Below, in pieces: positions 23,212 to 43,690 of a stretch of 64,000 nucleotides of DNA. The notes beneath the pieces were generated by a model. The model saw only the letters and a program-made list of their open reading frames with translations, made no database searches and was not told the origin of the DNA. The stretch spans positions 1-64,000 of the forward strand of contig JBMOPW010000032.1 in assembly GCA_049322915.1 (NCBI GenBank), given 5' to 3'. Position 1 is the stretch's first letter; each line of letters starts with the position of its first letter. This DNA is from Candidatus Zhuqueibacterota bacterium. GTDB taxonomy: Bacteria; Zhuqueibacterota; Zhuqueibacteria; Thermofontimicrobiales; Thermofontimicrobiaceae. The translations under genes and the position numbers were made by a program.

Positions 23212-23343
23212 GTCGTCCCGTTGAAGAGATGCGCCAATTGCTCCAGTTAGGTGATCTGTTTTAATTAAGAATTTAACGTCACACAAGATACATATATTAA
23301 GATGATAGAACACGATAGATCGATGTCAGGTGGGAAAAAAAGG

Positions 23344-24321: not shown

Positions 24322-24428
24322 AGATTAATCACACAAAATCTGATGCAGTTTGATCTGTTCTGAGCGACATAAGAAGGCTGTCGCCTGGAATAATACTAAT
24401 AATATGAAAGACCAGTAAAGAATTTTTT

Positions 24429-24566
24429 GGGCTAAAGCCGTAACCGTTTGGGATTCTGTAGCAAGCTCTCCGCCTTAAATGGCGGAGCTATTCATTAACT
24501 TTGACTAGCTCCGTTCTTTCAAAGGGAGTTCTTGATAATTCACCCAGAGATTTTAAACTTTGCCCA
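24429..24566. repeat. REP/REPIN-like nested palindromic element
   Basis: GGGCTAAAGCC (24429-24439); hairpin CTCCGCC-TTAAAT-GGCGGAG (24468-24487); degenerate inverted copy TAGCTCCGTTCTTTCAAAGGGAG (~24506-24528); degenerate AACTTTGCCCA at the right end. Confidence 0.55.
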
Positions 24567-24638
24567 GATGATATTTCAAAGTTATTCAACTGGTCCTTCA
24601 TATTAATAAATATTTCATTAATTCTAACAGGAGGGGTC

Positions 24639-26706: not shown

Positions 26707-26762
26707 GAGTTTTAATTTTCCGATAATTTAAATGAATAACGTGCTAATTGTCTCGAGGATTT

Positions 26763-27896
26763 ATGATGGAAAACATTGGATTGAACAGCGAAGTTTTTGC
26801 AGGTGGAAAAAAATTCCATATTCAAACTCAGTACCTGGAACCAAATGAAAAAGTAGTGTCAACAATTTTTGATGATGGAAAGGTGACATTAACAAAATCG
26901 ATTGAATTAGCCACGAACGCTGGCACTGCCGAAATTAAACTTCAGGTCAACAAATTGCATCAGGATATGATTTCGGATATCGAGTTGTTGTTCTATATTT
27001 CTGATAAAGTCAAAATGATTGAGCACGCGATTTCGAACAACAAACTGGGATTAGTCTTTCTGAGCAAGAATTTAATCGATGAGGCGATGGGGGAATTCAA
27101 ACGGGCCATTGAAATAGATCCAGAATTTGTGGAAGCGTACAACAATCTTGGCCGTGCATACTTGAAACAAAAACAGTATCAGGACGCGATTGACATTTTA
27201 AATGCTGGTATTAAAACCAACCCGGATTACGCAGATGTGCATAATAATCTGGGCTATGTCTATTTCAGGCTGAATTATTACTCTGACGCTATCGCTGAAC
27301 TGCAGCGAGCGATCGAATTGAATTCTGACTATGTGGTTGCCATGTTCAACCTTTGCCTGGTCTATTTAAAAACCATTGTGGATGAGATCGGGGAGGATGA
27401 AAATTTACCGTCGATGGCAAAACGGATGGAAAAAATCAAATCACTTTTGATCGAAATAAAGGACAAGCGCCATTTCTTCAAACCGGAAAATATTGAAACA
27501 GTTCTCACCTATCTTGAAAATGAAAACATCGAGGAAGCGGTGAATGCTCTGGAGTTGGCGGAGTCCGAGCGCGCCGAGATCGTAGATTATGATTTTGAAA
27601 ATGAATTTTATTTGAAATTTATGTTTGGCGGTAAAGGCAAAGACGATGATTTTATTTTGGAGTACACGAACCAGTTGAAAGAAATAGTCAGAAAATATCC
27701 TCACTTTGCCGATTTGAGAAATAGCCTGGGCGTCGTCTATCTCATTCAGTGTCGAAATTTATTTTTAAATGCATTGGAAGAATTCCGTCAAGCGCTGAAA
27801 ATTAATCCAACATTTAAAAAGGCGGAAAAGAATCTCAAGCTGGCTGAGAATGATGGCAAAGGCTTTTTGATCTTACTTCGCGCCATTTTAAAATAG
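26763..27896 (+). CDS. TPR-repeat protein with N-terminal domain of unknown function
   Basis: Multiple TPRs (EAYNNLGRAY, ADVHNNLGYVY, ADLRNSLGVVY); N-terminal GLNSEV..GGKKFHIQT domain; no signal peptide. Confidence 0.8.
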   Translation: MMENIGLNSEVFAGGKKFHIQTQYLEPNEKVVSTIFDDGKVTLTKSIELATNAGTAEIKLQVNKLHQDMISDIELLFYISDKVKMIEHAISNNKLGLVFLSKNLIDEAMGEFKRAIEIDPEFVEAYNNLGRAYLKQKQYQDAIDILNAGIKTNPDYADVHNNLGYVYFRLNYYSDAIAELQRAIELNSDYVVAMFNLCLVYLKTIVDEIGEDENLPSMAKRMEKIKSLLIEIKDKRHFFKPENIETVLTYLENENIEEAVNALELAESERAEIVDYDFENEFYLKFMFGGKGKDDDFILEYTNQLKEIVRKYPHFADLRNSLGVVYLIQCRNLFLNALEEFRQALKINPTFKKAEKNLKLAENDGKGFLILLRAILK

Positions 27897-28222: not shown

Positions 28223-28729
28223 ATGTATCCTTCTGAAACATATCAAAGGTGTGAGACAGGGAACTGGCGGTTTCTACCTGTATTGTTTTTTATTATCTCG
28301 ATTTTTATATTGATCAGCGCGGCTCAGGCGTCTCCAGCGGACACGGTGAATGTGGTGGCCAGGCATGCGGAATCCAATGCAAAATCGATTTATAAAATTG
28401 AATTCAGATTAGCAATCGCCATTTCACCGAAAGCAATTTTGAAAGTCACCTTTCCGGATGGCTTTGATTTATCTGAACTCAAAATTGCCAGTTCAAAGAC
28501 GATGAACGGCGGATTCGATGCAGAGGTAAATGGTCAGGTTTTATTGCTGAAGCGGTCAGGCCTGGGAAGAGAAATAAAGCCCGGTGAAAAGGTGGATGTC
28601 AACTTTGCAATTGTAAAAAATCCCCTGAAACCTGCCGATGATTATAGAATAATCGTTGAGATAATGGAAAAAGAAACCAGTATCTTGAAGCAAGAAAAAT
28701 TGCACAAAATTCTGCCCGAGCGAGAATGA
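28223..28729 (+). CDS. Small secreted beta-sandwich protein, paralogue of the N-terminal domain of the downstream giant protein
   Basis: Signal peptide ending AQA-S; visible alignment to residues ~28-170 of 28797..36905. Confidence 0.75.
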   Translation: MYPSETYQRCETGNWRFLPVLFFIISIFILISAAQASPADTVNVVARHAESNAKSIYKIEFRLAIAISPKAILKVTFPDGFDLSELKIASSKTMNGGFDAEVNGQVLLLKRSGLGREIKPGEKVDVNFAIVKNPLKPADDYRIIVEIMEKETSILKQEKLHKILPERE

Positions 28730-28796
28730 TTCGGTGGCTTCGAGGGCCAGCGAAAATGAGTGTGAATAGCTGAACTAAAACTTTGGAAGAGCATCA

Positions 28797-31700
28797 ATGA
28801 GGATACGACATCTAAGCGCAGGGATCATTTTGGTATTGATTTTCATCCTGTCAGGGAACGCATCGTCTTTATTGGCACAGGGAGCATTGTCAAATATCAC
28901 CACGACAATAAGCGATAATATCGTTGGCGCCACGGCAATCTATACCTTCACGTTCACGACGTCAGACACCGGCAATGGTGACGATCTTGGAAATGATGAA
29001 GGAATTCCGAGCGACGGAAAAATCAGACTCACTTTTGACAGCGGATTTGATTTTTCCGATCTCATTGTTGTCAATTCACAAAATAGCAATATGACCGGCG
29101 GATTGTCAATTTCGAGTATCATCGGAAATGTTGTTACCATTTCGCGGGATGGCACAGGAAATAATGTTCCTGTCTCCACGCCTGTGAGCTTAAGTCTGGG
29201 CACAATTGGAAACAGCTCGACAGCCGGAAATTATAATGTTGATATTATCACCATGACCAGTGGTGGCACCTATATTGATGCTGGTCCAACGCCAAATTTC
29301 TCGATAGTTGCTGGGACTATAGATCATTTCATTGTCAGTACAAGCGGAAATGCAACGGCTGGTTCTTCATTTGCGGTCATCATTACTGCGAAGGATGCAA
29401 ACAACAACACGGTGACATCGCATTCTGCAGCGGTTGCTTTGACTGATTTAACCGATACAATCACGCCGATCACATCAGGGAATTTTTCGGGTGGCGTGTG
29501 GAATGGTAATGTCATGTTCACGAAAAGCCGAACCGATAATAAAATCACAGCGACCTGGAGTGGGATTACAGGCATGTCATCGGAATTTGATGTGCTTCCG
29601 GCGGCGCTCCATCATTTTACTTTTACGACGATTACCAGCCCCAAAACTGCCAATGCTCCATTCAGTATTACTGTTACTGCTCGGGATGTGTACGAGAATC
29701 TTGTGACAAGTTATGTCAGTACGGTGACGCTGACAGACCTGTCCGGTTCTCTCAATATGACATCGAATAGTTTCAGCGCAGGAAGTTTGACGCAAAACGT
29801 GACTATCACAAAAAGTCAAACGGATGATTATATAACGGCGACCGGGAGTACAAAAACGGGCACGTCCAATTTGTTCAACGTGAATCCAGGCAGCCTGTCT
29901 AAATTTTCAATTGGAACCATTTCATCGCCTCAGACTGCCGAGGAGTATTTTTCCATTGCGTTAACCGCCCAGGATGCCAGCAATAATACAGTGACAAGCT
30001 TCAGCGGGACAGTGAATATCACGGACAAGAGCGGGACAATAACGCCCGGCGTAAGTCCAGGTTTCAGCGGCGGCAAGTGGAACGGGCAGGTCAAAATTTC
30101 CGATGACTATACGAACGATCAAATTACGGTAACGCGTTCTGGCGGGTCGGAAACAGGCACGTCGAATTCTTTCAATGTCTTGGTTGGCTCACTGGATCAT
30201 TTCACAATTTCAACGATTGCGACGCCGCAGATGGCCGGAGATGATTTTACAATTACGGTGACTGCCAAAGACAAGTCAGAAAATACAGTCACTTCGTACG
30301 CCGGGACGGCGACGCTCATAGACATCACCGGTACAATCTCGCCTCAGGTTTCAGGCAACTTCGGCAGCGGCGTATGGACAGGGGCTGTAACGATTTATGC
30401 CTCCGGCTCCGGCAATAAAATTATCGTCACTGGCAGTGATAAAACCGGAACATCCAACAGTTTCAATGTAAGCCCGGCCGGACTCGATCATTTTTCATTT
30501 TCTGAAATTGCCAGTCCGCAGATTGCCGGTGCCCCAATCTCCATGACCATTGAGGCGAATGATGCTTATGAAAATATTATAACAGGATTTTCCAGTACAG
30601 TCACCCTGTCGGATGAATCAGGGACATTGACGCCAACAACGAGCGGAAATTTCAGTTCCGGCGTCTGGACAGGAAGTGTCACGATTACCAAAGCTTATGT
30701 GGATAATAAAATCACGGCGATATCCACCGGTAAAAATGGCGTTTCAAATAATTTTAATGTGAATGCGGATGGGCTTGATTATATACTCATTCGGGATAAC
30801 CCGGGCGGCCTGGGAGCTGAAGTGGGCGATCTCACATTAAATTTCAACGATCAGGTGGTTTTGTACGCTGCCGGGTATGATCAATATGATAATTATATCA
30901 ATGATGTGACAGCGAATTGGGATACGGCCGGAACGTTGCTGGATATGCCGTCTCCATTGGTCGGGACAAGCACGACCTATCGGGTCGAAACGGTCAACAC
31001 AAGCAGCCAGGTGGGTAAAATCTGGGCCGTGAGCGGCGGCGAAGTCGATAGCACAGGAACGATCACTGTCGCTGAAATCGATCATGTTCTCATCCGCGAT
31101 GCGGACAATGGCGAGGGTAATGTCGTTGCATCCCGCACCATTTCCGCGGACGAGACGCTGACGCTTTATGCGGCAGCCTATGATGCCGGAAATAATTATT
31201 TAGGCCCGGCCGTGGTGAATTGGACCAATGATGGCACATTGACGCCGGCAATTTCATCCACGAATGCCACACTTGTTTTTCAACCGACCTCTGCGCCTGC
31301 GTCAGGAAAGATAATCGCCACCCATGCGACAGCGAACGATGACACGACCGGAATGGTAACTGTCGTTCCCGGAGTCCCGGTCGGCGAGATTGTATTGCAT
31401 CCAAATCCGAAAGTCGTCCCGGCGGATCCTGACACAGTTACGACTGTTTCGTCTGACCCAATTTCAGATAGCGATGGAAATGCAATTTCGAGCGGCGAAT
31501 ACTTCACAGTCAGTACGACGCTGGGGACTATCACTTCCGCCGACGCGAACCCGGGCATTGGGGGGACTCAGGTTGTGTCCAATGCATCCGGTCAGATTGC
31601 CTTCACGGTAAAAACAGGAGTGACTGGTGGAACGGCTTTGATCCAGGCGAATAGCGTCGTCCGGGGAACGGCTGCTGGCGATACGAGTGTTGTCATTACC

Positions 31701-34700
31701 GGAATCGAAATTCTATCCCTGTCGGTTGATTTCACAAAAGTGAGCCGAAGCCAGCAAGATATACCCGTGGATATGACCGTTCAAAATTGGGGAGCGACAG
31801 GGGCGACAATAATGACCGGAGGCGCTGGATTGAAGTTTACAGGCCCTGCTCCCGGCTATTCGAATCGCTCCGGGGATTATGTTGTCGTTCGCACAGATAC
31901 TTTTTCGGTGATTCCGGGGAATGGCATCAAAACGTTGAGTTTCCTTGTTGATGTGAATGCGAATGCATTGACGGATTCCATCGAGATCGACGGTTTTATT
32001 AATTGTAATGTGAATGGCTTCACTGTGGGGGATGAGTTCGCAAATGAAACGGATAAGTGGTTGGTTCAAACGCCGCCAGCGTTCAGATTCCTGCGCGTCA
32101 CTGCCGGGGAGGATACCGTCATTCAGGGGACAAATACGATAGTGAAGGCCACAATCAAAAATGACGGAGATGCAACGGCGCTCATTGATTCGGTGAGATT
32201 CATGTATTCAAACCTGACGCCGCCCATCCTGGATGTGACAGATGACTATGCGCTCGCGCCCTATCCAACGAATCCCGCTTCGATTGAGGGGCACAGCCTT
32301 GATAGCCTCTTTTTTACGGTCACCGTGGGTTCCAATGCGGCCGTCGACGACATTGGCATCGATGGCAAAATATTTGGAAGAGATCAAAATTCCGGTTTAG
32401 CTTATTCGGATATAAATGCAGATACCACGGATAGCTGGCATGTGAAACAAGCGTCGGATTTGGAGATCGTCGCTTTCAATCCCAGCCAGCGGACCGTAAC
32501 CAGCGGGCAGGTAGAGAATTGGTTTTTGGACATGGTGATTGACAACAATGGCGGGGCCAACTTGCGGCTGGATAGCGTCAGAGTTGATTTTACCTATGGC
32601 GGCGCTGATATTTCCAGTGAATACGCAACCGTATATCCTGATATATTTCAGACCAGTGGTGATAACTTGTTGAGAGCCGGGGCGATCGATACGCTCCGAA
32701 TTACCATTGATAAGACAGGGACCACAATCGGGGCGGTTACTGTCGGCGGGACAGTTTATCTGAATGACATGATCAGCGGACAGTTAATTAAAAGCAAACT
32801 CACCGGCGTCACGGTACAGGCGCCCGGCGCATTGACTATAAAATATATCAGATCGTCGCAGCCTGAAGTGACCACCGGCCAGACGCAGGACTGGAGCGTC
32901 AGTCTGGCGCTCACGAACAATGGCGGCGGGGACATTGCGATTGACACAACGCGTCTGGCTGATTTCTTCAATTTTGGCGCAGACCCGAACTACACAGTTC
33001 AACCGCCAGCATCGTTTGCCCATAGTGGAAATTTCGTGCTCGTGGCCGGGGCAACGGATAGTCTGATTTTTACCATTGATTCCACGGGTACCATAGCCGG
33101 TATGCGGTCGGTGAATGTTTCGGTCTTTGCAGAGGAAATAAACAGCCATGATCCAATCTCCATTGCCGGCGTCATGACGATTGAAGTTGAAATCCCGGCC
33201 AATATCCGAATTCTGAAGACAGTCAGTCTGGCGCCAAATGCGCCGTATGTGGATAACAATCAACTGTTCCAGATTGCGGTGCTGGTGCAGAACCAGGGTG
33301 GTGATGCCGCCAAAAATATTGAAATGTCGCTCGTACGGGATAGCACATCGACGATCTTGAATCCACAGGACACGCTCCCCATTGTTCAGGGAATGAGCAT
33401 CGATACGTTGAAATTCAATGTGCAGGCTTCCTCCAACTGGATCTGGGATGAAATTTTCACAGCGACGATCGATACTGCCACAGCAGAAAATACACTCGAA
33501 TCTGATAAAATAATCTTCAGTTCGCCAGTGGATTCTGTGGATACAACTGTGGTTCAGCGCCCGGCAAAATTTAAAATTGTTACTATTTCACCATCGCAGG
33601 ACACGGTGCGGGCATTGAGTCCTTACGAATGGCAAATCACTGTGGCGGTGGAAGACAGCGGCGCCGGTTACCTTCGGCTGAATCCGCCGGACGAGGAAGA
33701 TGTTACCATTTCCATCAATGGCCAAGCGCAGGACGATTACACGATTGTTCCGCCCAATGCTTTCGAGGTTCATCCTGATTTAATGTTATCGTGGCATGAA
33801 ACGGATGCGCTGGTTTATCGCGTGACAAGCACCGGCGTTTTAGGCGGATCGGCGCGAATAAAAATCAATTTGAGTGGACGTTATCTGAATTCGGATACTC
33901 CATTTCAGGTGATGGATTCCACGTGGATTTATATCCGACCATCGGCTGATGTATTTATCGACAAAACCGAGCCAGTCTGCCGAAACATCAATCAATATGG
34001 CATTGGTCAGGTGAACACCAGCCAGAGTTTTTCAGTGAAATCGAAAATCCGAAATACCGGCGGCGAGCAGGTGGACGATGTCGTCGTCAGTCTCACCGCG
34101 CCGGGCTACTCCATTCCGCCGGCGACGATAGATTACATTTTACCGTCCGGCGAGGCGCTAGCAACTTTCACTTTCAATGCGCAGGCAGTGGCTTCAGAAC
34201 AGGTGAAATTCACTGCGACAATTCTTTCCGCTGTTTCGCACGGCAGCGGTCTATCGGCCATTATTGGAGCCGCTTCAGATTCCACCGCGCTAGTCAGGGT
34301 GCATACGCCGGCGCTCATGCGGCTTTCCATTCTGACTGAAAACACAATTTTTTCGGTTGGACAGAGCGCCCCGTTCCAGGTCGAAGTCGAAAACTTAGGG
34401 ACTGCAGAAGCGGATGCCAGTGGCGAACTGGCGGTATTTATGCCTCAGGATTATTTCGTCTTAGCGAATGAAGTGCAGAAAGTATCCGATACCACATCGT
34501 TTGAAATTAATGAAACGATCACCTGGGAGGTTTTGCCTCCTTCGACCGAATCCATCGGTGACACGATTATAGTTAAAATTACGAAGCCGCCAGTGGATAA
34601 AAACACCGGCCTATTCGCATTAATAGAAAATACGGATCCGTTCGACTCCCTGGTCGTGAGAACGGTTCCCCTGGAACTCAGTCTGAATTCATTTGAAATT

Positions 34701-36905
34701 ACCTCGCCGGCCGGAGCGACGGATGATACATTATCGACGCTTCAAAATTTCTATGCCCAGGTCAATTTCACAAAGTCTGAAAATATCAGCAGCGTCACAG
34801 CGCGGCTGAAGGTGCCGAATGGATACACATTCGCTACTGGAACGGATTCCGTGAAGGCAAATATTACAGACTACGCCACATGGCGGCTCATTGCGCCTGA
34901 GGATGCTCGTTCGAATGAGGAGTTGATACGCGTGGAGGTGTCTGGCTATGTCGGAGCGGACTATGTCACTGCGAAGGATAGCATCTCGGTGGTCGTGGAA
35001 AACCGGGCTACATTACTGATTGATCGCCTGTGGATTTCCTGGCCGTCAACGGATAGCACGCTATCAATGAGCCAGGAATTTGATTTGAGCGCTATTGTCA
35101 TCAATTCCGGCGATGCGAAAATTGATGGTCAGACCAATTTGAAAATTGATTTTGGCGCAACCGGAGTCACAACCAGCGATGATGCCATAAAGGCTGCAAC
35201 TCCTGATATGCCTGTGACGTGGCGATTGCGCGCTCCGGCAGAGGAAAAATTGAAAGCGCCGATTGTTGTTTCCATTGAAACAATTCCCAGAGACGTGAAC
35301 ACAAATGAAAAAGCAGTGGTGACGACCCGCTCCAAATATTTCTATGTTCAGACACAGCAATCGGCGACGGCATCGATTGAAAACCTGAGAATAATTTCGC
35401 CGTCAGGAGCGATCGATAAAGTGTTCTCCACCTATCAAACCTTCCAGATTGAAGCGGATGTGAACTGGTACAACTGCACAACAGCGCCGTCTGTGCAGCT
35501 TCAGTTGGAAGGCGGCTTCACGACGCCTGAATCGTATCCAAAAGTTCCGAATGGTGTCGATGGCCAGGGAACCGTCAATTGGACAATCACAGCGCCGGGC
35601 AACTCCATTACAGACCAGAACATCTGGCTGAAGTTGACGGCTCAGGATGCTAACAGTCGCATTACATTTACGCGCACTTCGGACTCACTCGAAGTGGACG
35701 TGCTTCGGCGCGCGACGATTCAATTGAACGGAAAAATTAATTCACCAAAAAGCGCGCTGGATGGAATTGTCTCGACCAACCAAAATTTCGTGGTCTGCGC
35801 GAATTTATCCCGGTTCGGCGACGCTAATATTTTGGGCAATTTCAGCGCGACTCTGAAATTACCCAGTGGCCTGGGTTATTCAACGGCTCAGAATTTGACA
35901 CTATCAACAACGCACAGCGATTCTCTGTTCTGGACAATTACAGCGCCGGCCTCCGAACGTGTTCCCGACAATATTACTGTCACGCTCATTAGCTGGCCTG
36001 AAGATGAAAACACAAATCTCTCCATTGCAGCCGAAGCGGTGCTGTTAAAAAATGTCTATATTCCGGTTTCGACGGAAGAGAAAAGCGTGACAGTAGAGAT
36101 GCTGCCTCCGCCTTTGAAAAATACAATAGCCAGGGGAGACACCATGGTGTCTATGCTGGGGCTTGAATTGCTGGCCTCAGGCGATTCTTTTTCGAACAAT
36201 ATTCTGTTTACGGGCGTTAAAATTAGGCTGAAAGATCGCACGGGCGCCCTTATTTCAAATCCGGCGAAGGTGATTTCGCGGATACGAGTCGTGAATAATC
36301 AACAGAACTCTCAGATTTACGGACAGGTCACTTCGATCCCGACGAGCAATCCAGTTGAAATTCTGTTCACGCAGGTGGATACGCTGAAACCAGAAATTGA
36401 AAACCAGGTTCAGTTCAAAGTCGATATTGCTGCAAATTCGGAAATAAGCGATTTCCGGATGGCGATTGATTCTGTGACTTCACTCTATCTTTTTGATGAG
36501 GAATCCGGCCAGACACCGAAGCTGAAAAATGCGAGTGGCCAATCCCTGGAACTTCTCAATTTTGAATCTGAGCCGTCCGTGATCATTGAATCGAATTTCG
36601 ATAAAGCATTCAGCAATTACCCAAACCCCTTTGGCGAAATAAACCGGCCGGTGACAAACTTTGTTTATTATCTGGATGAAGATACTGATGTAAAAATCCA
36701 GATTTACACATTGATCGGAGAATTGGTGTGGGAGCGAACTTACACAGAGGCTGAATCCCAGGGTCGCGAGGGACTGCATGATTCGGATATAATCTGGGAT
36801 GGAAGAAATGGGCAGGGACATAAAGTTTTAAACGGTGTGTATGTCGCCAGAATTTCTACGGGCTATGGCAAAGCCGCTCTTAGAAAAATAGCAGTGATAA
36901 AATAG
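28797..36905 (+). CDS. 2702-aa multi-Ig-domain surface protein with T9SS type A/FlgD-Ig C-terminal sorting domain
   Basis: Signal peptide ending LLA-Q; Thr/Ser-rich tandem beta repeats; C-terminus FSNYPNPF...IQIYTLIGELV...WDGRNGQG..VLNGVYVARI...KIAVIK. Confidence 0.85.
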   Translation: MRIRHLSAGIILVLIFILSGNASSLLAQGALSNITTTISDNIVGATAIYTFTFTTSDTGNGDDLGNDEGIPSDGKIRLTFDSGFDFSDLIVVNSQNSNMTGGLSISSIIGNVVTISRDGTGNNVPVSTPVSLSLGTIGNSSTAGNYNVDIITMTSGGTYIDAGPTPNFSIVAGTIDHFIVSTSGNATAGSSFAVIITAKDANNNTVTSHSAAVALTDLTDTITPITSGNFSGGVWNGNVMFTKSRTDNKITATWSGITGMSSEFDVLPAALHHFTFTTITSPKTANAPFSITVTARDVYENLVTSYVSTVTLTDLSGSLNMTSNSFSAGSLTQNVTITKSQTDDYITATGSTKTGTSNLFNVNPGSLSKFSIGTISSPQTAEEYFSIALTAQDASNNTVTSFSGTVNITDKSGTITPGVSPGFSGGKWNGQVKISDDYTNDQITVTRSGGSETGTSNSFNVLVGSLDHFTISTIATPQMAGDDFTITVTAKDKSENTVTSYAGTATLIDITGTISPQVSGNFGSGVWTGAVTIYASGSGNKIIVTGSDKTGTSNSFNVSPAGLDHFSFSEIASPQIAGAPISMTIEANDAYENIITGFSSTVTLSDESGTLTPTTSGNFSSGVWTGSVTITKAYVDNKITAISTGKNGVSNNFNVNADGLDYILIRDNPGGLGAEVGDLTLNFNDQVVLYAAGYDQYDNYINDVTANWDTAGTLLDMPSPLVGTSTTYRVETVNTSSQVGKIWAVSGGEVDSTGTITVAEIDHVLIRDADNGEGNVVASRTISADETLTLYAAAYDAGNNYLGPAVVNWTNDGTLTPAISSTNATLVFQPTSAPASGKIIATHATANDDTTGMVTVVPGVPVGEIVLHPNPKVVPADPDTVTTVSSDPISDSDGNAISSGEYFTVSTTLGTITSADANPGIGGTQVVSNASGQIAFTVKTGVTGGTALIQANSVVRGTAAGDTSVVITGIEILSLSVDFTKVSRSQQDIPVDMTVQNWGATGATIMTGGAGLKFTGPAPGYSNRSGDYVVVRTDTFSVIPGNGIKTLSFLVDVNANALTDSIEIDGFINCNVNGFTVGDEFANETDKWLVQTPPAFRFLRVTAGEDTVIQGTNTIVKATIKNDGDATALIDSVRFMYSNLTPPILDVTDDYALAPYPTNPASIEGHSLDSLFFTVTVGSNAAVDDIGIDGKIFGRDQNSGLAYSDINADTTDSWHVKQASDLEIVAFNPSQRTVTSGQVENWFLDMVIDNNGGANLRLDSVRVDFTYGGADISSEYATVYPDIFQTSGDNLLRAGAIDTLRITIDKTGTTIGAVTVGGTVYLNDMISGQLIKSKLTGVTVQAPGALTIKYIRSSQPEVTTGQTQDWSVSLALTNNGGGDIAIDTTRLADFFNFGADPNYTVQPPASFAHSGNFVLVAGATDSLIFTIDSTGTIAGMRSVNVSVFAEEINSHDPISIAGVMTIEVEIPANIRILKTVSLAPNAPYVDNNQLFQIAVLVQNQGGDAAKNIEMSLVRDSTSTILNPQDTLPIVQGMSIDTLKFNVQASSNWIWDEIFTATIDTATAENTLESDKIIFSSPVDSVDTTVVQRPAKFKIVTISPSQDTVRALSPYEWQITVAVEDSGAGYLRLNPPDEEDVTISINGQAQDDYTIVPPNAFEVHPDLMLSWHETDALVYRVTSTGVLGGSARIKINLSGRYLNSDTPFQVMDSTWIYIRPSADVFIDKTEPVCRNINQYGIGQVNTSQSFSVKSKIRNTGGEQVDDVVVSLTAPGYSIPPATIDYILPSGEALATFTFNAQAVASEQVKFTATILSAVSHGSGLSAIIGAASDSTALVRVHTPALMRLSILTENTIFSVGQSAPFQVEVENLGTAEADASGELAVFMPQDYFVLANEVQKVSDTTSFEINETITWEVLPPSTESIGDTIIVKITKPPVDKNTGLFALIENTDPFDSLVVRTVPLELSLNSFEITSPAGATDDTLSTLQNFYAQVNFTKSENISSVTARLKVPNGYTFATGTDSVKANITDYATWRLIAPEDARSNEELIRVEVSGYVGADYVTAKDSISVVVENRATLLIDRLWISWPSTDSTLSMSQEFDLSAIVINSGDAKIDGQTNLKIDFGATGVTTSDDAIKAATPDMPVTWRLRAPAEEKLKAPIVVSIETIPRDVNTNEKAVVTTRSKYFYVQTQQSATASIENLRIISPSGAIDKVFSTYQTFQIEADVNWYNCTTAPSVQLQLEGGFTTPESYPKVPNGVDGQGTVNWTITAPGNSITDQNIWLKLTAQDANSRITFTRTSDSLEVDVLRRATIQLNGKINSPKSALDGIVSTNQNFVVCANLSRFGDANILGNFSATLKLPSGLGYSTAQNLTLSTTHSDSLFWTITAPASERVPDNITVTLISWPEDENTNLSIAAEAVLLKNVYIPVSTEEKSVTVEMLPPPLKNTIARGDTMVSMLGLELLASGDSFSNNILFTGVKIRLKDRTGALISNPAKVISRIRVVNNQQNSQIYGQVTSIPTSNPVEILFTQVDTLKPEIENQVQFKVDIAANSEISDFRMAIDSVTSLYLFDEESGQTPKLKNASGQSLELLNFESEPSVIIESNFDKAFSNYPNPFGEINRPVTNFVYYLDEDTDVKIQIYTLIGELVWERTYTEAESQGREGLHDSDIIWDGRNGQGHKVLNGVYVARISTGYGKAALRKIAVIK
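29319..30773 (+). repeat. Five diverged ~97-aa Ig-like intragenic repeats
   Basis: Units begin IDHF/LHHF/LSKF/LDHF/LDHF about every 290 bp and share F.I.ITA.D...N.VT.....V.LTD..G and G.SN.F.V. Confidence 0.8.
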
Positions 36906-36922
36906 CAAATAGGATTTGAGAG

Positions 36923-38845
36923 ATGAGAATATCAAATTTCTTCATTGGAGTCTTCAGTTTTTTTCTGACATTTGGTTTGTTTGTCGGTATAGCTAATGGA
37001 GATGAAGGTTTTGCAGGGACGCAAAGCAATTTCAATCTCGGGGTCGGTGCCAGGGCTCTCGCATTGGGAAATGCCTATGTTGCTATGCCGTTCGATGCAA
37101 CCGCCGTTTATTGGAATCCTGCCGGACTGGATTACATTCAGAGAAAAAATGTGAGTCTGTTTTATACCAATTTATTAGCAGGCGCCAAATACTTTTATTT
37201 CGGCTATGCGCATCCAACAATAAATTTTGGTTCTTTTGGATTCGGCGTAATTAGTAGTGGCGTTGGTGATATTCAAGAAACGGATAGCTCCGCTCCCATT
37301 GAATTGGGGACATTTTCTTACTCTCAGCAGGAGTTTCTTCTGTCTTATGGAAAGCAGCTTCCCTGGAATATTGCGTTAGGCGTCAATTTAAAAATTGATC
37401 ATCAAAGTATACATGGACTTACAGATACAGGCGTCGGAGCAGATTTTGGATTTTTGTATCGGCCGAATTTTACAAATTTTCTTTTGAGCGGAGTGTCCGT
37501 AGGGTTGACTGCGCAAAATTTATTCGGACCGAGACTTAAACAGATTTCTGAAACTGACATTAGTCCAATAAATATCAGGATGGGATTTGCGAAACCAATT
37601 TTAACAAATGAATGGGGAAATCAATTCACGATTTTTATGGATTTTGAACAAAGTGAGTACGAGCCATTCAAGTTCCACACCGGCACCGAATATGTTTTCA
37701 ATAATTTTGCCATGCTTCGGGTTGGGTTGAATAACAATCAAATCGCGTTTGGGGCGGGTGCAGCGATCAGCATGTTCCAGATCGATTATATGTATGGCAA
37801 ATTTTCTGATAATCCATTTGACACAAATCATCGCATTTCCTTTAGCGTAACGTTCGGGAAGTCCAAAGATGAGCTGGTGAAAATTGCTGAGCAGCGCCGA
37901 CTGGAAGAGATTCAGCGAAAAGTCGAACAGCAAAGGATTTGGGAGCGCGATGAGAAAATTTCCGAGAGCATGGATCGAGGTAAGCAATATCTCGAAATTG
38001 AAGATTATGAACGGGCATTGCGCGAGTTTAATTTCATAACAAATTATGAAAGTGAAATGCCGAATTCAACGGTGATTGCTGAAGCTCGTAAATTGTCGGA
38101 GGAGACAACTCAAAGGAGAGACGATAAGCTTAAAAAGTCTTTCGATGAAATTCGAAGCCGGAATGAAGCGGAGAAAGAGCGGAAGGAATTAGACATCTTC
38201 CTCGACCGGCAATTCGATTTAGGGCTGTCTCATTATGAAGTCGAAGAATATGAAAAAGCCATTGCCGAATGGCAAAAAATGTTGGATCGCGATCCGAATA
38301 ATGTGCTGGCCAAAGAGTGGATTCCCAAGGCTCAGGCGGATTACGAAAAGAAAATATTGTCATTGATTAACCAGGCTGATAATTTCGCACGTAAGGGCCG
38401 GTACCTGGAAGCGATCAGCGTTTTGAATAATGCCCGGATGTTGAATCCGGACGAAAAGCAGATCAATGTCATCGACTCCCGCAGTAATTCCTACAAACAG
38501 CAAATGCAATTCGATGAGCTGTTTCAGCAGGGATATCGATATTACATCACCAAAGATTATGTCAATGCTATGAATTCGTTCCAGGAAGCGCTCAAGCACC
38601 GTCCTAACAATGAACAGGTGAAAAAGTTATATACCGATGCCGAGGCACGTGCCAATGCGAAGAAAATGCGTATGACGCCGGAGATGGCTAAAAAATATGA
38701 TCGGGGGATTAATTTGTACACGGCGGGAAAATATGAGGAGGCCATTCAGATTTGGGAAGAATTGTTATTGATTCAACCCTACAACAAAGAGATTTTAGAT
38801 ACCATCGACGGGGCCAAAGAACGAAGCCGACAGCAGAAGAAATAG
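36923..38845 (+). CDS. PorV/PorQ (UPF0164)-like outer-membrane beta-barrel fused to coiled-coil and TPR tail
   Basis: Signal peptide; GVGARALALGNAYVA..DATAVYWNPAGL; barrel ends at HRISFSVTFG, followed by ~330 aa of helical/TPR sequence. Confidence 0.8.
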   Translation: MRISNFFIGVFSFFLTFGLFVGIANGDEGFAGTQSNFNLGVGARALALGNAYVAMPFDATAVYWNPAGLDYIQRKNVSLFYTNLLAGAKYFYFGYAHPTINFGSFGFGVISSGVGDIQETDSSAPIELGTFSYSQQEFLLSYGKQLPWNIALGVNLKIDHQSIHGLTDTGVGADFGFLYRPNFTNFLLSGVSVGLTAQNLFGPRLKQISETDISPINIRMGFAKPILTNEWGNQFTIFMDFEQSEYEPFKFHTGTEYVFNNFAMLRVGLNNNQIAFGAGAAISMFQIDYMYGKFSDNPFDTNHRISFSVTFGKSKDELVKIAEQRRLEEIQRKVEQQRIWERDEKISESMDRGKQYLEIEDYERALREFNFITNYESEMPNSTVIAEARKLSEETTQRRDDKLKKSFDEIRSRNEAEKERKELDIFLDRQFDLGLSHYEVEEYEKAIAEWQKMLDRDPNNVLAKEWIPKAQADYEKKILSLINQADNFARKGRYLEAISVLNNARMLNPDEKQINVIDSRSNSYKQQMQFDELFQQGYRYYITKDYVNAMNSFQEALKHRPNNEQVKKLYTDAEARANAKKMRMTPEMAKKYDRGINLYTAGKYEEAIQIWEELLLIQPYNKEILDTIDGAKERSRQQKK

Positions 38846-41800
38846 GTGATTTTCGGAAGAGAGGATTTGTACGCTTTGAAAGCAGCAATTAAAGAAGAAA
38901 TAAAAGTTCCCGCGCACATAGATTACCTGGGCGAGTTACGTAACTTTGTAACAAAGACAGGTCGCAAACACAGTTTTCCGGATACGGTTGTAAATGCATT
39001 CAAACTGTGTATCGATGAGGCGGCGACAAACATCATCAAACATGCGTATCGCGACCATGATGGCATGATTACTATGCGCGTCATCGTTAAAAAAAACAGC
39101 ATGACAGTGGTGTTGGTTGACCAGGGAAAATATTTCGATCCGTCTCGTGTCGCAGATCCCGATTTGAAGCGATATATCGATATCGGCAAAAAAGGCGGCC
39201 TCGGTATTTTTATCATGCGCAAGCTGCTTGATGAAATTGAATATCATCATACCGAAGAGGGCAATGAACTCCGGCTGACGAAATACCGCGACAGTTCGTT
39301 TCGTAAGAAAAAAGAAATTCAGGCGCCATCGCTTGCTGTTAGCCTGAAGATGAGATATTCAATTATTTCAGCGGTTATTCTTTTTGTTGCCATCGCCATA
39401 GGTTACTTCTTCTATTTCTTCAAGCATGGAAATCAGGTATTGGATGAATTTGTCGCCATTGAAAGCCCGTACTGCCAGAACATCGCGCGAGCTATCATTG
39501 ACGATAATGATGAAGATCTGAAACGATTTTACGTGGCCCTGAAAGTCAATGAATTCAAGGAATCGCGCAGCGATATTTTCAGAATTTCTGTGACTGATAC
39601 AACCAATTACATCATTCATTCAACGGATGAAGTTTTATCCGGCCAGGAATTTAAAATACCCGCTGACCATTCAAAACCACGTCCCAATCTATATCAGTAT
39701 AAAACCTCCAAGGGAATTGAAGTATACAGTTTCAAGAGCAATGTGAATAACACTGCCGATCAAAAAGTTGGAAATATCTATTTAGAATTTCAAACCGATC
39801 TAGTGAGTCGAAAAGTCGCAGCGGTGCGAATCCGCGACCTTCTCACTGCGATCATGATTTTGCTCCTGAGCTATATGGGCGTGGCCGTTCTGATTTACCT
39901 CATCATGAATCCGTTTCGTAAGCTTTCGACCTGGGTGCGCGAATTGGGACACGGCGGCGACGTTAAAGATGAGATTGATTTTGACTCTGGTGATGAAGTC
40001 GGAGAGATCGCAAAGGCGTTCAGCGACATCACCGATAAATTTCGTCAGTCGCAGAAAAACCTGGCTGAACAGGAACGTATTCAAAAAGAGATGCAACTGG
40101 CTCAGGATATTCAGCAGACACTGCTTCCGTCGGAAACGCCAGTCCTGGAGGGGTATGAAATTGCATCCCACTATGAATCTGCCAAAGAGGTTGGCGGGGA
40201 TTATTTTGATTTCATTGAAGTGGATAAAGATACGCTTGGCATAGTAGTGGCGGACGTTTCCGGGAAAGGCGTCCCCGGCTCACTCATTATGACAATGATC
40301 AGAACGGCTTTGCGTACCGAGGCGCGTTCGATTCGGTCGGCTTCGGAGGTGTTGGCGCGGGTCAATGAGTTTGTCGTGAACGATATGAAAAAGGGCATGT
40401 TTGTCACTTTGTTTTATGTCATTATCGACTCAAAAAAGAGGCGGATCAACTACGCCAGCGCCGGTCACAACCCCATGATTCTGTACCGTCAGGGATCGAA
40501 AAAGACATATTACCTGAATCCGCGTGGATTTCCTGTGGGCATTTCCTTGCCGGATACTGAATTATTCAAACGATCAATTGAATCAGATACAATTCAATTG
40601 GCCGAAGATGACATCCTGATAATTTACACAGATGGCATTACCGAGGCGATGAATGGCCGGCGAGAGATGTTCAGCGAGGAGCGGCTGCAGGACGTGATTC
40701 GTAAGTCTGGTCACCTGCGGGCCAATGCATTTATTGATAAGCTCCGCGATGAAATACACTCGTTTACTGAGGGGTACGAACAGAGCGACGACATCACGGT
40801 TGTTGCAATTAAGGAGCAGAGCACGCCGGAAAAAATTGAATTGAATCGGGCTCAAAATGCTCATAAAGCAATTCTGGCCGGGAAAAATATCCGTGAAGCA
40901 TGCGAAGAATCGGGCATCACCACGTACGCTTATTACAATAAATATAAAAAAATCTTTGAAGAGGAAGGCATCGATGCCTATTCCATTGATGAAACAATTT
41001 CTGTTGAAGCAAAGCATCTGAGCATCGAAGAAAAGACCAAGATTTACGACATTATAAAAAAGCATCCTGAATTCGGCGCAAAAAGAATCAGCGAAGAATT
41101 AAATATTGAACTCTATGGTTTTACAGAAATAAACGAAAGCAGGATTTATGATGAGCTGGTCCGAAGTCGGTTAAATACGCGACAATTGCGGGAGGCCTAT
41201 ATTTCCCGTTCAGGAAAGAAGAAGAGGTTGAAGCCGCCCGGTACACCAATGTTAACATTGGATGGAAAAATTATTCTCAATCGCAATTATGAAGAGCCAT
41301 CTGCACCGACGCAACAGGAGGTGCCAAAACGAGTTCAATCCGAAGAAAAGAAAGAACCGTCGGCGGACCAGGTGCAAAAGGTCAGGAAGGTCAAGCAGGT
41401 TCGAGTACCCCGAGACCCGGATGACAATTTCTACCTCGAGAGTCTCATGACCATGCCAATCGAAGACCTGCTTAAAAAGGAACGGGATATGGAAGAGGTC
41501 GAGGAATCTGATACGGGATTGCAGGCCTCAGCCTTTACAGAAAAGAAGGGGGGTGTTGCGACAGAAAGCAAAATGCGGGAAGAATCAGCTGAAGAGACAC
41601 ACAACGACCTCTTTTTTGATGATGAAAAATCAGAGGAATCTTCCGATGATATAGATGTTGATTTCGATGATGAAACAGTGGAATATCAGCGGAAAGAACC
41701 TGCGCAACATGATGATGAAGGGCTGGAACATGATTTCAGCTTCAAAGATATCTGGGATGAACAGGGCGATGAGATTGAAGAACAAAGCCTTGATTCCGGC

Positions 41801-42772
41801 GACACGAAAAGACCGGCGGAGCAGGGAGCAGACTCCGATCTCAGTCCTGACAAAATAGAACTACCGGAGATGTCAATAGAGGACAATCGTGTTTCCAGAC
41901 GCGGGATCGATATCGAGGATTTGCTCGAAGAGCCGGACGATGCAAAGGCTCCCGATGAGTTAGGATTTGAAACGCTGATTGAGGAAGCGAGTTTTAAAAA
42001 CGATATTTTTCAGGTGGAACACACCGAGGAAAATGGCAATGGAAAATTAGAACTAAATGAACATACTTCCGGCGCCGAAGACGATGCTCTGCATGAGTTG
42101 GAAGCGCCAAGTTTTTTGAATGAGATTGAAGAAATTTCAATGGCCGATGAGGATGATATCCTTTCCGAGACTGAAATCGCAAGTGATGATTTCTCCTTCA
42201 ATGACCTGTTGGATGCAATTGAATCGGATATTTCTTTCTTTGAAAAAGGCGAAGCTCATGAGGACGAAGCCGAACTGGTTCTTGAAGGAAAACCGAAAAA
42301 TGCAGAGGCAAAACGAGCGTCTGAAGAAAAAGATTTTGGCGATTTTGTAGATCATGTGGCCGTTAAAAATACGGAGGACGTCAGACCCTTTCCTACGAAG
42401 CAGGATCCATTGCGCGAAAAGCATCTCATTCTGGGACTGAAATTCTATAACGAAAGAAATTATACCCAGGCGGTTGAGCAGTTCCTTCAGGTCACGAAAA
42501 TGTATCCTGATTTTAAGGAAGCGTTCAGTATTTTAGGCAATTCTTACTATCGCTCTAATCAATATGAGCATGCTGTAACAGCCTACAAACGCGTAAAGGA
42601 ACTGGATCCGAACGATACGGATGCCTACGAAAACACCGGGGTGATTTATGCAAACAATGGTAAATTCCGAGAAGCAATCAGAGAGTGGAAGCGGCTGATT
42701 GAAATCGATCCGGGTCGGGAAGATATTTTAAATCATATTACGAAGGCAGAAGAATTAATGAAAAAACTATAG
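38846..42772 (+). CDS. Membrane sensor: RsbW-type HATPase + 2 TM/periplasmic domain + HAMP + SpoIIE/PP2C phosphatase + HTH + acidic linker + TPR
   Basis: DEAATNIIKHAY, DQGKYFDP and GGLGIFIM (kinase); two TMs; DEVGEIAKAF (HAMP); VGGDYFD, ADVSGKG, SAGHNP, YTDGITEA and SDDIT (PP2C); C-terminal TPRs; true start may be TTG 38867 or 38876. Confidence 0.88.
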   Translation: MIFGREDLYALKAAIKEEIKVPAHIDYLGELRNFVTKTGRKHSFPDTVVNAFKLCIDEAATNIIKHAYRDHDGMITMRVIVKKNSMTVVLVDQGKYFDPSRVADPDLKRYIDIGKKGGLGIFIMRKLLDEIEYHHTEEGNELRLTKYRDSSFRKKKEIQAPSLAVSLKMRYSIISAVILFVAIAIGYFFYFFKHGNQVLDEFVAIESPYCQNIARAIIDDNDEDLKRFYVALKVNEFKESRSDIFRISVTDTTNYIIHSTDEVLSGQEFKIPADHSKPRPNLYQYKTSKGIEVYSFKSNVNNTADQKVGNIYLEFQTDLVSRKVAAVRIRDLLTAIMILLLSYMGVAVLIYLIMNPFRKLSTWVRELGHGGDVKDEIDFDSGDEVGEIAKAFSDITDKFRQSQKNLAEQERIQKEMQLAQDIQQTLLPSETPVLEGYEIASHYESAKEVGGDYFDFIEVDKDTLGIVVADVSGKGVPGSLIMTMIRTALRTEARSIRSASEVLARVNEFVVNDMKKGMFVTLFYVIIDSKKRRINYASAGHNPMILYRQGSKKTYYLNPRGFPVGISLPDTELFKRSIESDTIQLAEDDILIIYTDGITEAMNGRREMFSEERLQDVIRKSGHLRANAFIDKLRDEIHSFTEGYEQSDDITVVAIKEQSTPEKIELNRAQNAHKAILAGKNIREACEESGITTYAYYNKYKKIFEEEGIDAYSIDETISVEAKHLSIEEKTKIYDIIKKHPEFGAKRISEELNIELYGFTEINESRIYDELVRSRLNTRQLREAYISRSGKKKRLKPPGTPMLTLDGKIILNRNYEEPSAPTQQEVPKRVQSEEKKEPSADQVQKVRKVKQVRVPRDPDDNFYLESLMTMPIEDLLKKERDMEEVEESDTGLQASAFTEKKGGVATESKMREESAEETHNDLFFDDEKSEESSDDIDVDFDDETVEYQRKEPAQHDDEGLEHDFSFKDIWDEQGDEIEEQSLDSGDTKRPAEQGADSDLSPDKIELPEMSIEDNRVSRRGIDIEDLLEEPDDAKAPDELGFETLIEEASFKNDIFQVEHTEENGNGKLELNEHTSGAEDDALHELEAPSFLNEIEEISMADEDDILSETEIASDDFSFNDLLDAIESDISFFEKGEAHEDEAELVLEGKPKNAEAKRASEEKDFGDFVDHVAVKNTEDVRPFPTKQDPLREKHLILGLKFYNERNYTQAVEQFLQVTKMYPDFKEAFSILGNSYYRSNQYEHAVTAYKRVKELDPNDTDAYENTGVIYANNGKFREAIREWKRLIEIDPGREDILNHITKAEELMKKL

Positions 42773-42836
42773 GAAAAAAGTTGTAGAAATACTTCAGATT
42801 ATTAAAAAAACGAAAGATGTGATTCATATTTTTTTA

Positions 42837-42865
42837 TTGACTTTTAGTTATTTTTCAATTATATT
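42837..42865 (+). promoter_or_regulatory. Internal sigma70-type promoter for STAS gene
   Basis: TTGACT (42837-42842), 17 bp, TATATT (42860-42865). Confidence 0.55.
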
Positions 42866-42909
42866 TCGACTTAAGAAAATTTTGCGAATAATACATCTTG
42901 GAGTATTCG

Positions 42910-43623
42910 ATGGAAGGAATTCAATTGTCTGTTAAACAAACAGGAGTTGACAATAATATTTCTGTGATTAAAGTGGGTGGGTACATTGATACGACGACTT
43001 CCGCAGAACTGGAGCACTCGCTTGAAGCATTATTGGAAGCTAATAATTATAACATCATTATTGATTTGTCCAATGTTGATTATATTAGCAGCGCCGGCTG
43101 GGGGATTTTTATAAGTGAGATAAAAGGGATTCGGGAAAAAGGCGGTGATCTGAAACTAATCGGTATGATCCCTGATGTGTATGAAGTTTTTGAATTGCTG
43201 GAATTTCATTACATATTAAAAGCGTTTGATACGATCGAAGAGGCGGTCGCCGATTTTGATAAAACAAGACCGCGGGGCGAATATCGTCCTGTCGCTCAAA
43301 TGAATCGTGAAATGGAATCTCAGAAGCCAGAACCACCTCACATTTTGCGCCGCGGCGATGATAATCGGGAGAGTGAAGAATATCTGGAAAAGATGATGAA
43401 GCCGGATGCGAGCGACAAGAGTGTCGAGGCCAAAATCAAAAAGCTGGTCATCGAAAATCCTGAAAATGGCAGTATTAAAATAATGCGGGAATTGAACTCG
43501 CCGGCGTACGGAAATCTCAAGCTGAGCTGGTTTCAGGTAGTGCGGTATTTGAAACAGATGAATTTGAATTCAAAGAAGAAACGGGTTGAATTCTTCCAGA
43601 GAGAAACATTTAAACGTAGCTAA
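42910..43623 (+). CDS. STAS (anti-sigma-factor antagonist) protein with C-terminal HTH-like domain
   Basis: IKVGGYIDTTTS, IIIDLSNVDYISSAGWG, GGDLKL, VYEVFELL; extra ~120-aa C-terminus. Confidence 0.88.
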   Translation: MEGIQLSVKQTGVDNNISVIKVGGYIDTTTSAELEHSLEALLEANNYNIIIDLSNVDYISSAGWGIFISEIKGIREKGGDLKLIGMIPDVYEVFELLEFHYILKAFDTIEEAVADFDKTRPRGEYRPVAQMNREMESQKPEPPHILRRGDDNRESEEYLEKMMKPDASDKSVEAKIKKLVIENPENGSIKIMRELNSPAYGNLKLSWFQVVRYLKQMNLNSKKKRVEFFQRETFKRS

Positions 43624-43657
43624 TAAAAATTAAATTTGAATAACATATAGAGAATTC

Positions 43658-43690
43658 AGGAGTTTGTTATTATCTACAAACTCCTTTTTT
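43658..43690 (+). terminator. Intrinsic terminator closing the accessory locus
   Basis: AGGAGTTTGT/ACAAACTCCT 10-bp stem plus T run. Confidence 0.8.

Follow-up and report, generated by a model that had tools for sequence, protein, structure and literature searches.

In FecA-FecR-FecI and in RcsF-IgaA, an outer-membrane component reports to an inner-membrane signaling protein, and SiaA (of the SiaABCD system) and Chlamydia RsbU are transmembrane-HAMP-PP2C sensors that act on a STAS-like protein; HsbR-HsbA is also a membrane PP2C switch. The sensor domain of WalK is governed by protein partners (YycH/YycI) and not by a known small ligand. On the surface side, SprB-SprF and similar pairs of Flavobacterium johnsoniae consist of a giant repetitive surface protein encoded beside its own outer-membrane partner, the SprF-type partners belonging to the PorP/SprF family, for type B C-terminal domains (CTDs). 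To our knowledge, none of FecA-FecR-FecI, RcsF-IgaA, SiaABCD, HsbR-HsbA, and RsbU has a PorV-family barrel, a cargo of the type IX secretion system (T9SS), a tetratricopeptide repeat (TPR) arm, or a kinase and a phosphatase flanking the sensor, and we are aware of no published connection of type IX secretion to partner-switching phospho-relays, both of which are well studied. Here we analyze a locus where these elements are encoded side by side, located at positions 28223 to 43690 of a stretch of 64,000 nucleotides (the window, positions 1 to 64,000 of contig JBMOPW010000032.1, assembly GCA_049322915.1) from a Candidatus Zhuqueibacterota bacterium. It contains five genes, all on the forward strand, that we call g1 to g5. 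According to the open reading frame (ORF) calls, they encode a small protein (g1, 28223 to 28729, 168 amino acids [aa]), a giant secreted surface protein (g2, 28797 to 36905, 2702 aa), a PorV/PorQ-family barrel with a TPR arm (g3, 36923 to 38845, 640 aa), a bifunctional inner-membrane sensor (g4, 38846 to 42772, 1308 aa), and a STAS protein with a helix-turn-helix (HTH) domain similar to HTH_32 (g5, ORF 42898 to 43623, 241 aa).

A precedent for the signaling part is SypE of Vibrio fischeri (PMC10120452; PMC4517449), in which one polypeptide joins an RsbW-like serine kinase at the N terminus to a PP2C phosphatase at the C terminus and acts on the STAS protein SypA. In the sections that deal with it, SypA appears as a downstream, sigma-independent STAS output encoded in a polysaccharide locus, and its target is open (PMC10120452). 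A preliminary description of our locus, made from the sequence alone, had stated that no described system was known to have this architecture. As far as the coupling to type IX secretion is concerned, this agrees with the literature searched, where we found no link between type IX secretion or PorV and partner switching or STAS proteins (there is no mention of secretion or motility in the Zhuqueibacterota paper), but the kinase-phosphatase design has its precedent in SypE.

We propose that g2 to g5 form an ancient, conserved, envelope-spanning signaling module in which the barrel is coupled, via its TPR arm, to a Cache sensor and a STAS-HTH switch, a reading whose chances we consider evenly balanced. 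Within it, we infer the physical contacts, the direction of signaling, the sensed cue (contact or load), and the target of the STAS-HTH protein.

Conservation of the locus in Zhuqueibacterota

The preliminary description had named beforehand a survey of gene neighborhoods as one point where its proposal could fail. We searched the flanks of 52 loci with g4 orthologs, covering 26 families' worth of diversity within the phylum (KSB1), using the proteins of the window, and the surface protein and PorV-TPR genes were found to be kept with the kinase-phosphatase and STAS genes here and in at least five other labeled phyla (see below). A PorV-barrel/TPR gene was located directly upstream of g4 in all 52 loci, two copies being cut by contig ends, and the CTD of a giant protein preceded the barrel in 49 of them, with the three misses all found at contig ends. 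The STAS gene followed g4 in 49/52 loci, and two of the misses were again at contig ends; the remaining one (L062) has DNA downstream of g4 without a STAS gene, while a STAS-type match was found on another contig (G054:C58). Gaps between g2 and g3 and between g3 and g4 were mostly of 0 to 35 bp, and those between g4 and g5 mostly of 60 to 250 bp. The genes flanking the block vary, with metH in three loci, thiI in four, and neither in the rest.

The sensor gene is a core gene of the phylum. Its first 660 aa had a full-length ortholog in all 40 relatives searched, up to the class level, and of 167 genomes from the phylum, 155 carried it (153 of 165 if the two genomes flagged as unpublished, G158 and G162, are set aside), as did 102 of the 105 of high quality. 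In one locus (L075, G041:C19, positions 28 to 7100), the barrel-TPR and kinase/PP2C genes are read in a single uninterrupted frame of 1786 aa, either a true fusion, which would be topologically odd, or a slip in sequencing or assembly.

Relatives in other phyla

Full-length relatives of g4 with 30 to 43% identity, some of them named Zixibacteria, were found among 1.84 billion representatives, and their alignment was used to scan one genome per species, which returned 80 loci. Outside KSB1, the names of phyla are those of the record labels, and for full-length homologs these were Calditrichota/Calditrichia, Latescibacterota, Eisenbacteria, FCPU426, Zixibacteria, "Ignavibacteria," "Omnitrophota," and "Spirochaetia." In profile searches, the gene immediately ahead of the sensor encoded a PorV-family barrel carrying a helical tail in all 12 non-KSB1 loci that had upstream DNA. 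A STAS gene was found in 12 of the 14 that had downstream DNA (L104 and L110 being those without it), and a large protein with a T9SS-CTD-like end ahead of the barrel in 8. In the phylum represented by G167 (record labeled Calditrichaceae), g4 was present in 76 of 81 sampled genomes.

The cassette could also represent an inherited gene order, with the surface genes and the phospho-switch working independently. In KSB1, unrelated housekeeping genes have likewise stayed in the vicinity, namely, rsmD and coaD and, in some loci, metH or thiI. However, we consider this explanation very improbable, as the core order is kept across several labeled phyla within wholly different flanks, namely, DUF4159/DUF4175 in Calditrichota, GGDEF and exopolysaccharide export genes in L112 and L115, and a ParA-like gene in L109, and the genes are tightly packed.

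Most of the scanned loci (64 out of 80, L117 to L180) were rejected as members, because only the PP2C part was matched (approximately positions 390 to 650 of the model), with or without a STAS gene, and there was no fused barrel-TPR gene. The exceptions in this set were L129, a truncated true KSB1 copy, and three split relatives (L119, L121, and L139). In L119, a secreted protein made up entirely of TPRs is encoded directly ahead of a Cache-HAMP-PP2C gene and a STAS gene, and no barrel was found; L139 has the same arrangement of TPR protein and Cache-HAMP-PP2C gene, and its barrel, a weak match, is encoded by a gene of its own and has an OmpA tail.

Some members showed other fusions. In L113 (labeled Eisenbacteria, positions 1 to 5136), an ORF of 1711 aa, already open at the contig start, ends in the barrel and TPR arm, so that surface protein and barrel may be fused. 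In L101 (9947 to 17062) and L109 (9980 to 17422), the sensor (1420 and 1468 aa, respectively) includes three STAS domains behind its HTH. A TPR protein similar to the one found upstream of our block (g0, see below) and two further STAS genes come after it; in L109, a ParA-like ATPase also follows the sensor.

The surface protein and its apparently dedicated barrel

The giant protein g2 starts with a signal peptide and a domain similar to g1 (28911 to 29264), followed by CARDB-type repeats and a T9SS type-A-like CTD (36618 to 36890). The label of "Ig-repeat" protein given to it previously comes down to the CARDB matches (34.6 bits). The type A/FlgD-Ig CTD called in the preliminary description does have its matches, although under the curated cutoffs, to TIGR04183 (18.8 bits versus a cutoff of 23; E value of 1.2e-3; aa 2608 to 2698) and to FlgD_ig (19.2 bits versus 27). 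This region is conserved (27 to 83% identity) in 49/52 KSB1 loci, and the source genome has SprA and at least 150 T9SS CTD proteins. A second giant paralog, with a CTD 42% identical to that of g2, was found at C14:27538-40842 (also in L080). It was rejected as a second cassette, as it is followed not by a PorV-like gene but by a BatA/VWA/CARDB protein, hflX, and a sigma-54 activator.

The small protein g1 has a single N-terminal hydrophobic segment (aa 12 to 40), from which we infer a signal peptide. It had no match in Pfam or NCBIfam, and its profile gave nothing against PDB sequences at E values up to 10. However, the profile of 20 orthologs matched aa 39 to 156 of g2 (hhalign probability of 97.8%; E value of 1.2e-12), indicating that g1 is a free-standing copy of the N-terminal domain of the giant protein. 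In the language-model features of the Atlas, g1 was located near the cluster of the biofilm hydrophobins BslA/BslB (0.93; 193 of 256 shared), which is a lead only that no other tool confirmed.

The barrel of g3 (37034 to 37855) belongs to the PorV/PorQ family (NF033709, 135.8 bits versus a cutoff of 90; aa 38 to 311) but not to the PorV equivalog (NF033710, 46.3 bits versus a cutoff of 250). Since the housekeeping PorV equivalog is found elsewhere in the genome (C44:52873-53883, 258.3 bits versus the same cutoff of 250), g3 is a specialized paralog. The barrel is followed by an all-helical TPR arm of 325 aa (37865 to 38839), with TPR matches at aa 430 to 617 in the domain search. An AlphaFold2 model (pLDDT of 87.3) showed ca. 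14 strands between aa 75 and 311 and unbroken helices between aa 315 and 639, including two of 44 and 57 residues, and its best matches in the PDB were chains F of 8gl6 and 6h3i (TMt of 0.64/0.68), two F. johnsoniae T9SS translocon entries whose chains F we take to be PorV, followed by FadL. Both ends of even-stranded barrels are periplasmic, and for this reason the arm should be located in the periplasm.

Around 30 paralogs of the PorV/PorQ family were found above the cutoff in the source genome. The four others that have tails (L181 to L184) all carry OmpA peptidoglycan-binding tails, one of them together with an AMIN domain, and directly upstream of each is a large FlgD_ig/CTD surface protein containing FG-GAP, NHL, or DUF11/VWA domains. 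This regularity suggests that a tail of this kind is a periplasmic tether by design. A cargo together with its own barrel and periplasmic tether is, thus, a recurring cassette in this genome, and where the others have an OmpA tail, the g2-g5 locus has the TPR arm as tether and then the sensor gene. The g3 barrel appears to be dedicated to one cargo.

The bifunctional sensor

The domain calls and the assignment of compartments made previously were borne out by domain searches, prediction of transmembrane segments, and predicted folds. The N terminus of g4 is an RsbW/SpoIIAB-type serine kinase (38909 to 39283; HATPase_c_2, PF13581, 96 bits versus 27.4; aa 22 to 146), in which E58, N62, H66, D92, G94, and G117 to G120 are invariant among 42 orthologs, columns that we read as the probable N and G boxes. 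Two transmembrane segments were detected by hydrophobicity (39353 to 39421, ca. aa 170 to 192, and 39839 to 39907, ca. aa 332 to 354), and since they flank aa 193 to 331, this domain (39422 to 39838) must be periplasmic and the kinase and phosphatase cytoplasmic. A HAMP domain (39890 to 40021, 28.5 bits) and a SpoIIE/PP2C phosphatase (40226 to 40813; PF07228, 175 bits; aa 461 to 656) follow. Residues D452, D470, D596, D648, and D649 of the PP2C family domain were also invariant in the 42 orthologs and are presumably the metal ligands, as judged from general knowledge of PP2C enzymes. Nearly identical proteins in the databases are named merely "SpoIIE family protein phosphatase," and 2648 homologs were counted among the scored candidates.

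By sequence, the periplasmic domain gave no Cache match or anything else usable in Pfam, although g4 matched the NCBIfam model HK_WalK at aa 166 to 411 (E value of 2.3e-9). The predicted fold (pLDDT of 94.5) is that of a single Cache/PDC domain, i.e., a long N-terminal helix, a central sheet of five to six strands, and a C-terminal helix leading into the second transmembrane segment. In Foldseek, the closest structures were the extracellular domains of WalK (TM score of 0.71), with a WalK-YycH model in first place, and further matches included the sensor domains of KinD, CitA, and chemoreceptors. This is the fastest-evolving part of g4, with a mean column identity of 26% and, among 42 sequences, no invariant column and only one that was nearly invariant, and the lack of invariant columns is evidence against one conserved small ligand.

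The C-terminal part contains a bipartite transposase-type HTH (40847 to 41194, in the region of aa 660 to 806), an acidic linker of 385 aa (41243 to 42400; 17% Glu and 13% Asp), and a TPR region (42428 to 42745; aa 1195 to 1300). In the source copy, the HTH matches are weak and below the cutoff (20.4 and 17.6 bits; HTH_28 with an E value of 5e-4). Among the 42 orthologs, HTH_32 was matched by 31 (best E value of 1.4e-7), HTH_28 by 27 (1e-9), and HTH_23 by 20 (2e-11), so judging from these sequence matches the HTH assignments seem real. The HTH profile found only chance-level matches among PDB sequences, the best (E value of 0.002) being an acetyltransferase. The length of the acidic linker varies greatly, the orthologs ranging from 1111 to 1474 aa.

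The STAS-HTH protein and its putative output

The STAS domain of g5 (42946 to 43245) is a clear member of its family (PF01740, 66.3 bits versus 22.6; TIGR00377, 64.5 versus 53.45). Its loop VDYISSAGWGIFISE is invariant in 41 sequences, and the two consecutive serines (S60 and S61, at 43087 to 43092) most probably represent the conserved phospho-acceptor motif, which appears intact. The C-terminal domain, similar to HTH_32 (43387 to 43620), gave nothing usable against Pfam by sequence, but it matched the HTH of g4 both in BLASTP (E value of 8e-7) and in hhalign (probability of 98.5%; E value of 2.8e-15), indicating that it is a copy of the second HTH of g4. The HTH domains that had been proposed for both proteins thus probably stand.

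The gene most likely starts at the ATG at 42910 rather than at 42898, leaving a gap of 137 bp after g4 that holds a promoter-like site on the same strand (TTGACT, 17 nt, TATATT; 42837 to 42865, with the putative -10 box at 42860 to 42865). Of 50 loci, 43 had a near-consensus promoter (TTGAC[T/A], 16 to 18 nt, TATATT or TAAATT) between g4 and g5, in most cases 33 to 58 nt ahead of the STAS ATG, while shuffled gaps gave a mean of 0.51 such sites and a maximum of 4. The STAS gene is therefore probably transcribed from its own conserved promoter, although it may be expressed by read-through as well.

Domain searches found no sigma factor among the ORFs between 23302 and 48630, in agreement with what had been noted before. 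A hint about the output comes from a second STAS-HTH paralog, which was detected in 60 of the 61 KSB1 genomes sampled and which in 20/20 loci is located between a glgA-like gene and the wza-wzc-epimerase export genes. Furthermore, in L112 and L115, the STAS-HTH gene of the cassette itself is followed by a GGDEF cyclase, a Wzc-like ATPase, a TPR protein similar to g0, Wzz, and Wza. By analogy, the likeliest downstream target would be the production of cell surface polymers (exopolysaccharide or biofilm). An orphan RsbW-like kinase of 167 aa, 55% identical to the kinase of g4, was found beside uvrA (G000:C26:96375-96785; L078, 6301 to 6804) and might serve the second STAS-HTH paralog.

Proposed mechanism and rival explanations

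In the mechanism that we propose, g2 would be exported by the T9SS and then anchored on the cell surface by g3, the PorV-like barrel of its own, whose TPR arm would hang in the periplasm and contact the WalK-like Cache domain of g4. Via the HAMP domain, g4 would set the balance of two activities directed at the conserved serine of g5, namely, that of the RsbW-like kinase (N-terminal) and that of the PP2C phosphatase (C-terminal). The STAS-HTH protein g5, made from its own strong promoter and carrying a DNA-binding-type HTH copied from the g4 type, is proposed to be the output itself, with no need of a sigma factor, because it carries this HTH, and the switch would act on surface polymer production. 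A more specific version, in which the barrel senses load or occupancy, so that the presence, pulling, or loss of the giant protein changes the grip of the arm on the Cache domain and a flip of the DNA-binding STAS protein then switches polysaccharide and biofilm production, seems to us possible but on the whole somewhat unlikely.

The central contact, which the preliminary description had suggested for structure prediction, was evaluated by folding the arm (g3 aa 312 to 640) and the Cache domain (g4 aa 193 to 331) as a complex with alignments supplied. The score was 0.54 (0.57, 0.54, and 0.48 in the individual runs) versus 0.00 for the best of three controls, with a partner pLDDT of 85 and agreement between runs in at least 94% of contacts. 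In the calibration of the tool, 116 of 157 solved complexes and 2 of 215 mismatches attained the mark, but among those that attained it, just 18 of the 157 solved complexes, along with both mismatches, had scores of 0.60 or lower. The mark was thus passed weakly, which raises the odds of a contact between arm and Cache domain without establishing it.

Several points weigh against the module as a whole. According to the same calibration, scores like that of the arm and the Cache domain turn out wrong more frequently than right, except where the pairing was already probable. Small molecules are the usual ligands of Cache domains, and the sensor might therefore take no notice of the barrel. The synteny of rsmD and coaD (and of metH or thiI) means that part of the conservation within KSB1 is plain inheritance, and the CTD of g2 falls under both curated cutoffs. 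The four g4 paralogs L053 to L056, considered as second copies of the system, had neither barrel nor giant protein nor STAS gene beside them, and L062, L104, and L110 have no adjacent STAS gene in spite of the DNA present downstream. In the phylum of G171 (labeled Zixibacteria), only 24 of 41 sampled genomes were matched at an E value of 1e-100, and 15 of these 24 were without the HTH part. Finally, the five genes, presented as one unit in the preliminary description, are co-oriented and tightly spaced from g1 to g4, but the block is not one simple operon or transcription unit because the STAS gene has its own conserved promoter (43 of 50 loci).

Some of these points would fit a regulator encoded beside its target, where the Cache domain senses a small molecule or envelope cue alone, the kinase/phosphatase sets the STAS-HTH protein, the latter controls the transcription of the surface protein and polysaccharide genes, and the PorV-TPR protein serves only in export and anchoring. 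Regulators often adjoin what they regulate, the HTH modules seem real, the STAS gene has its own promoter, ligand-binding Cache/PDC folds (CitA, KinD, and chemoreceptors) are among the structural matches, and the fold of the arm with the Cache domain is weak. However, the barrel-TPR gene abuts the sensor gene in 52/52 KSB1 loci, mostly with gaps of 0 to 35 bp, and in 12/12 loci of other phyla, and the split variants keep the TPR protein beside the sensor without a barrel. Moreover, the Cache domain has no conserved pocket residues, and the controls of the fold were at 0.00. All in all, we find this explanation, the main rival of our proposal, unlikely, if only slightly more so than the load-sensing version given above.

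A third possibility is that the flow of information runs from the inside out, with g4 using the arm to gate how the giant protein is loaded onto its barrel, released from it, or anchored there, and the phosphorylation of the STAS protein reporting the state of the cytoplasm. The physical layout would be identical to that of the envelope-spanning relay that we propose, the cytoplasmic additions of g4 (HTH, the 385-aa acidic linker, and TPR) could take internal inputs, and g1, as a free copy of the N-terminal domain of the giant protein, could be a competitor or a cap. HAMP domains, though, normally relay outside signals to a cytoplasmic output, both enzyme domains and their substrate are cytoplasmic, and no result favored outward signaling. 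We therefore regard it as quite improbable.

Layout and flanking genes

The five co-oriented ORFs, the gaps of 67, 17, and 0 bp between g1 and g2, g2 and g3, and g3 and g4, respectively, and the terminator at the end of the block were all confirmed. The latter is an intrinsic-terminator-like hairpin on the forward strand (43658 to 43685; 10 pairs, 4 of them G-C) followed by a T run (tail TTTTTTATTAT), and it was the first-listed of 18 terminator-like sites between 26500 and 44500. Sequence features suggest that g4 may start at a TTG at 38867, which is preceded by the Shine-Dalgarno-like GGAAGAGAGG, and the orthologs align from about residue 10; given this alternative start, the gap between g3 and g4 would be either 0 or 21 bp.

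Downstream of the block are metH and thiI, and upstream are g0, coaD, and rsmD. The first of these, g0 (26748 to 27896, forward strand), encodes a protein of 382 aa that matches TPR families, with no signal peptide seen, and is found upstream of the block in KSB1 loci. Full-length homologs (27 to 35% identity) are located inside or beside the cassette in L101, L109, L112, L114, and L115, which makes g0 a candidate sixth component. Its N terminus (26748 to 27050) weakly matched RomY_Nterm (20.9 bits versus a cutoff of 50); RomY is part of the Myxococcus polarity system. Further upstream, beyond rsmD and coaD, the region from 23302 to 25619 contains a PilM-like gene (PF11104, 72.5 bits) and an ORF of 372 aa without family.

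Significance and comparison with known systems

If the load-sensing version of the proposal is true, this would be the first signaling route from the anchor of a type IX secretion cargo to a serine phospho-switch, as well as a sigma-free "partner switch" with a STAS-HTH transcription factor as its output, and the system would be ancient and common to KSB1, Calditrichota, Latescibacterota, and their neighbors. Bacteria of the KSB1/Calditrichota type are common in sediments, hot springs, and biofilms, and a cassette belonging to the core genes of entire uncultured phyla likely governs how they deal with surfaces. It might also serve as a model for an outer-membrane protein talking to an inner-membrane sensor through a TPR arm and for the function of STAS proteins without a sigma factor, a question still open for SypA.

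On the surface side, g3 shares its family and fold with PorQ and with the T9SS cargo shuttle PorV (6H3I and 8GL6, from F. johnsoniae) and adjoins a protein with a type-A-like CTD, but it adds a periplasmic TPR arm of 325 aa, while the matched chains have only 367 and 345 residues. The pairing of a giant protein with its own partner recalls SprB-SprF, although g3 is of the PorV/PorQ family, its cargo has a type-A-like CTD, and a signaling module comes after. At the inner membrane, g4 shares with WalK (4YWZ and 7DUD; integrative model 9A5D) a single extracytoplasmic Cache domain and a HAMP domain after the second transmembrane segment. However, WalK is a histidine kinase of the Firmicutes, while in g4 a serine kinase precedes the input module and a PP2C phosphatase follows it, and the partner proposed for this module is the TPR arm of an outer-membrane protein. 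The match of g4 to the SiaA model (58.8 bits) was below the cutoff, and g4 and g5 do not fall in the RsbU-RsbV-RsbW-SigB type, as there is no cognate sigma factor gene among the ORFs from 23302 to 48630.

The likeness to SypE, as far as the sections on SypE and SypA go, extends to the order of kinase and PP2C in one polypeptide, to the STAS partner, and to the link with a polysaccharide locus, which here comes through the STAS paralog and through L112 and L115. Nevertheless, SypE has a central receiver (REC) domain where g4 has transmembrane segment-Cache-transmembrane segment-HAMP with no Response_reg match, which places it outside the SypE type. SypA is described in those sections as a STAS domain only, while g5 adds an HTH domain, and neither a giant T9SS protein nor a PorV-TPR barrel is described there with SypE. 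By analogy, therefore, g4 probably works like SypE without being a member of its family, and the signaling core of the locus can best be understood as a variant of the SypE/SypA design.

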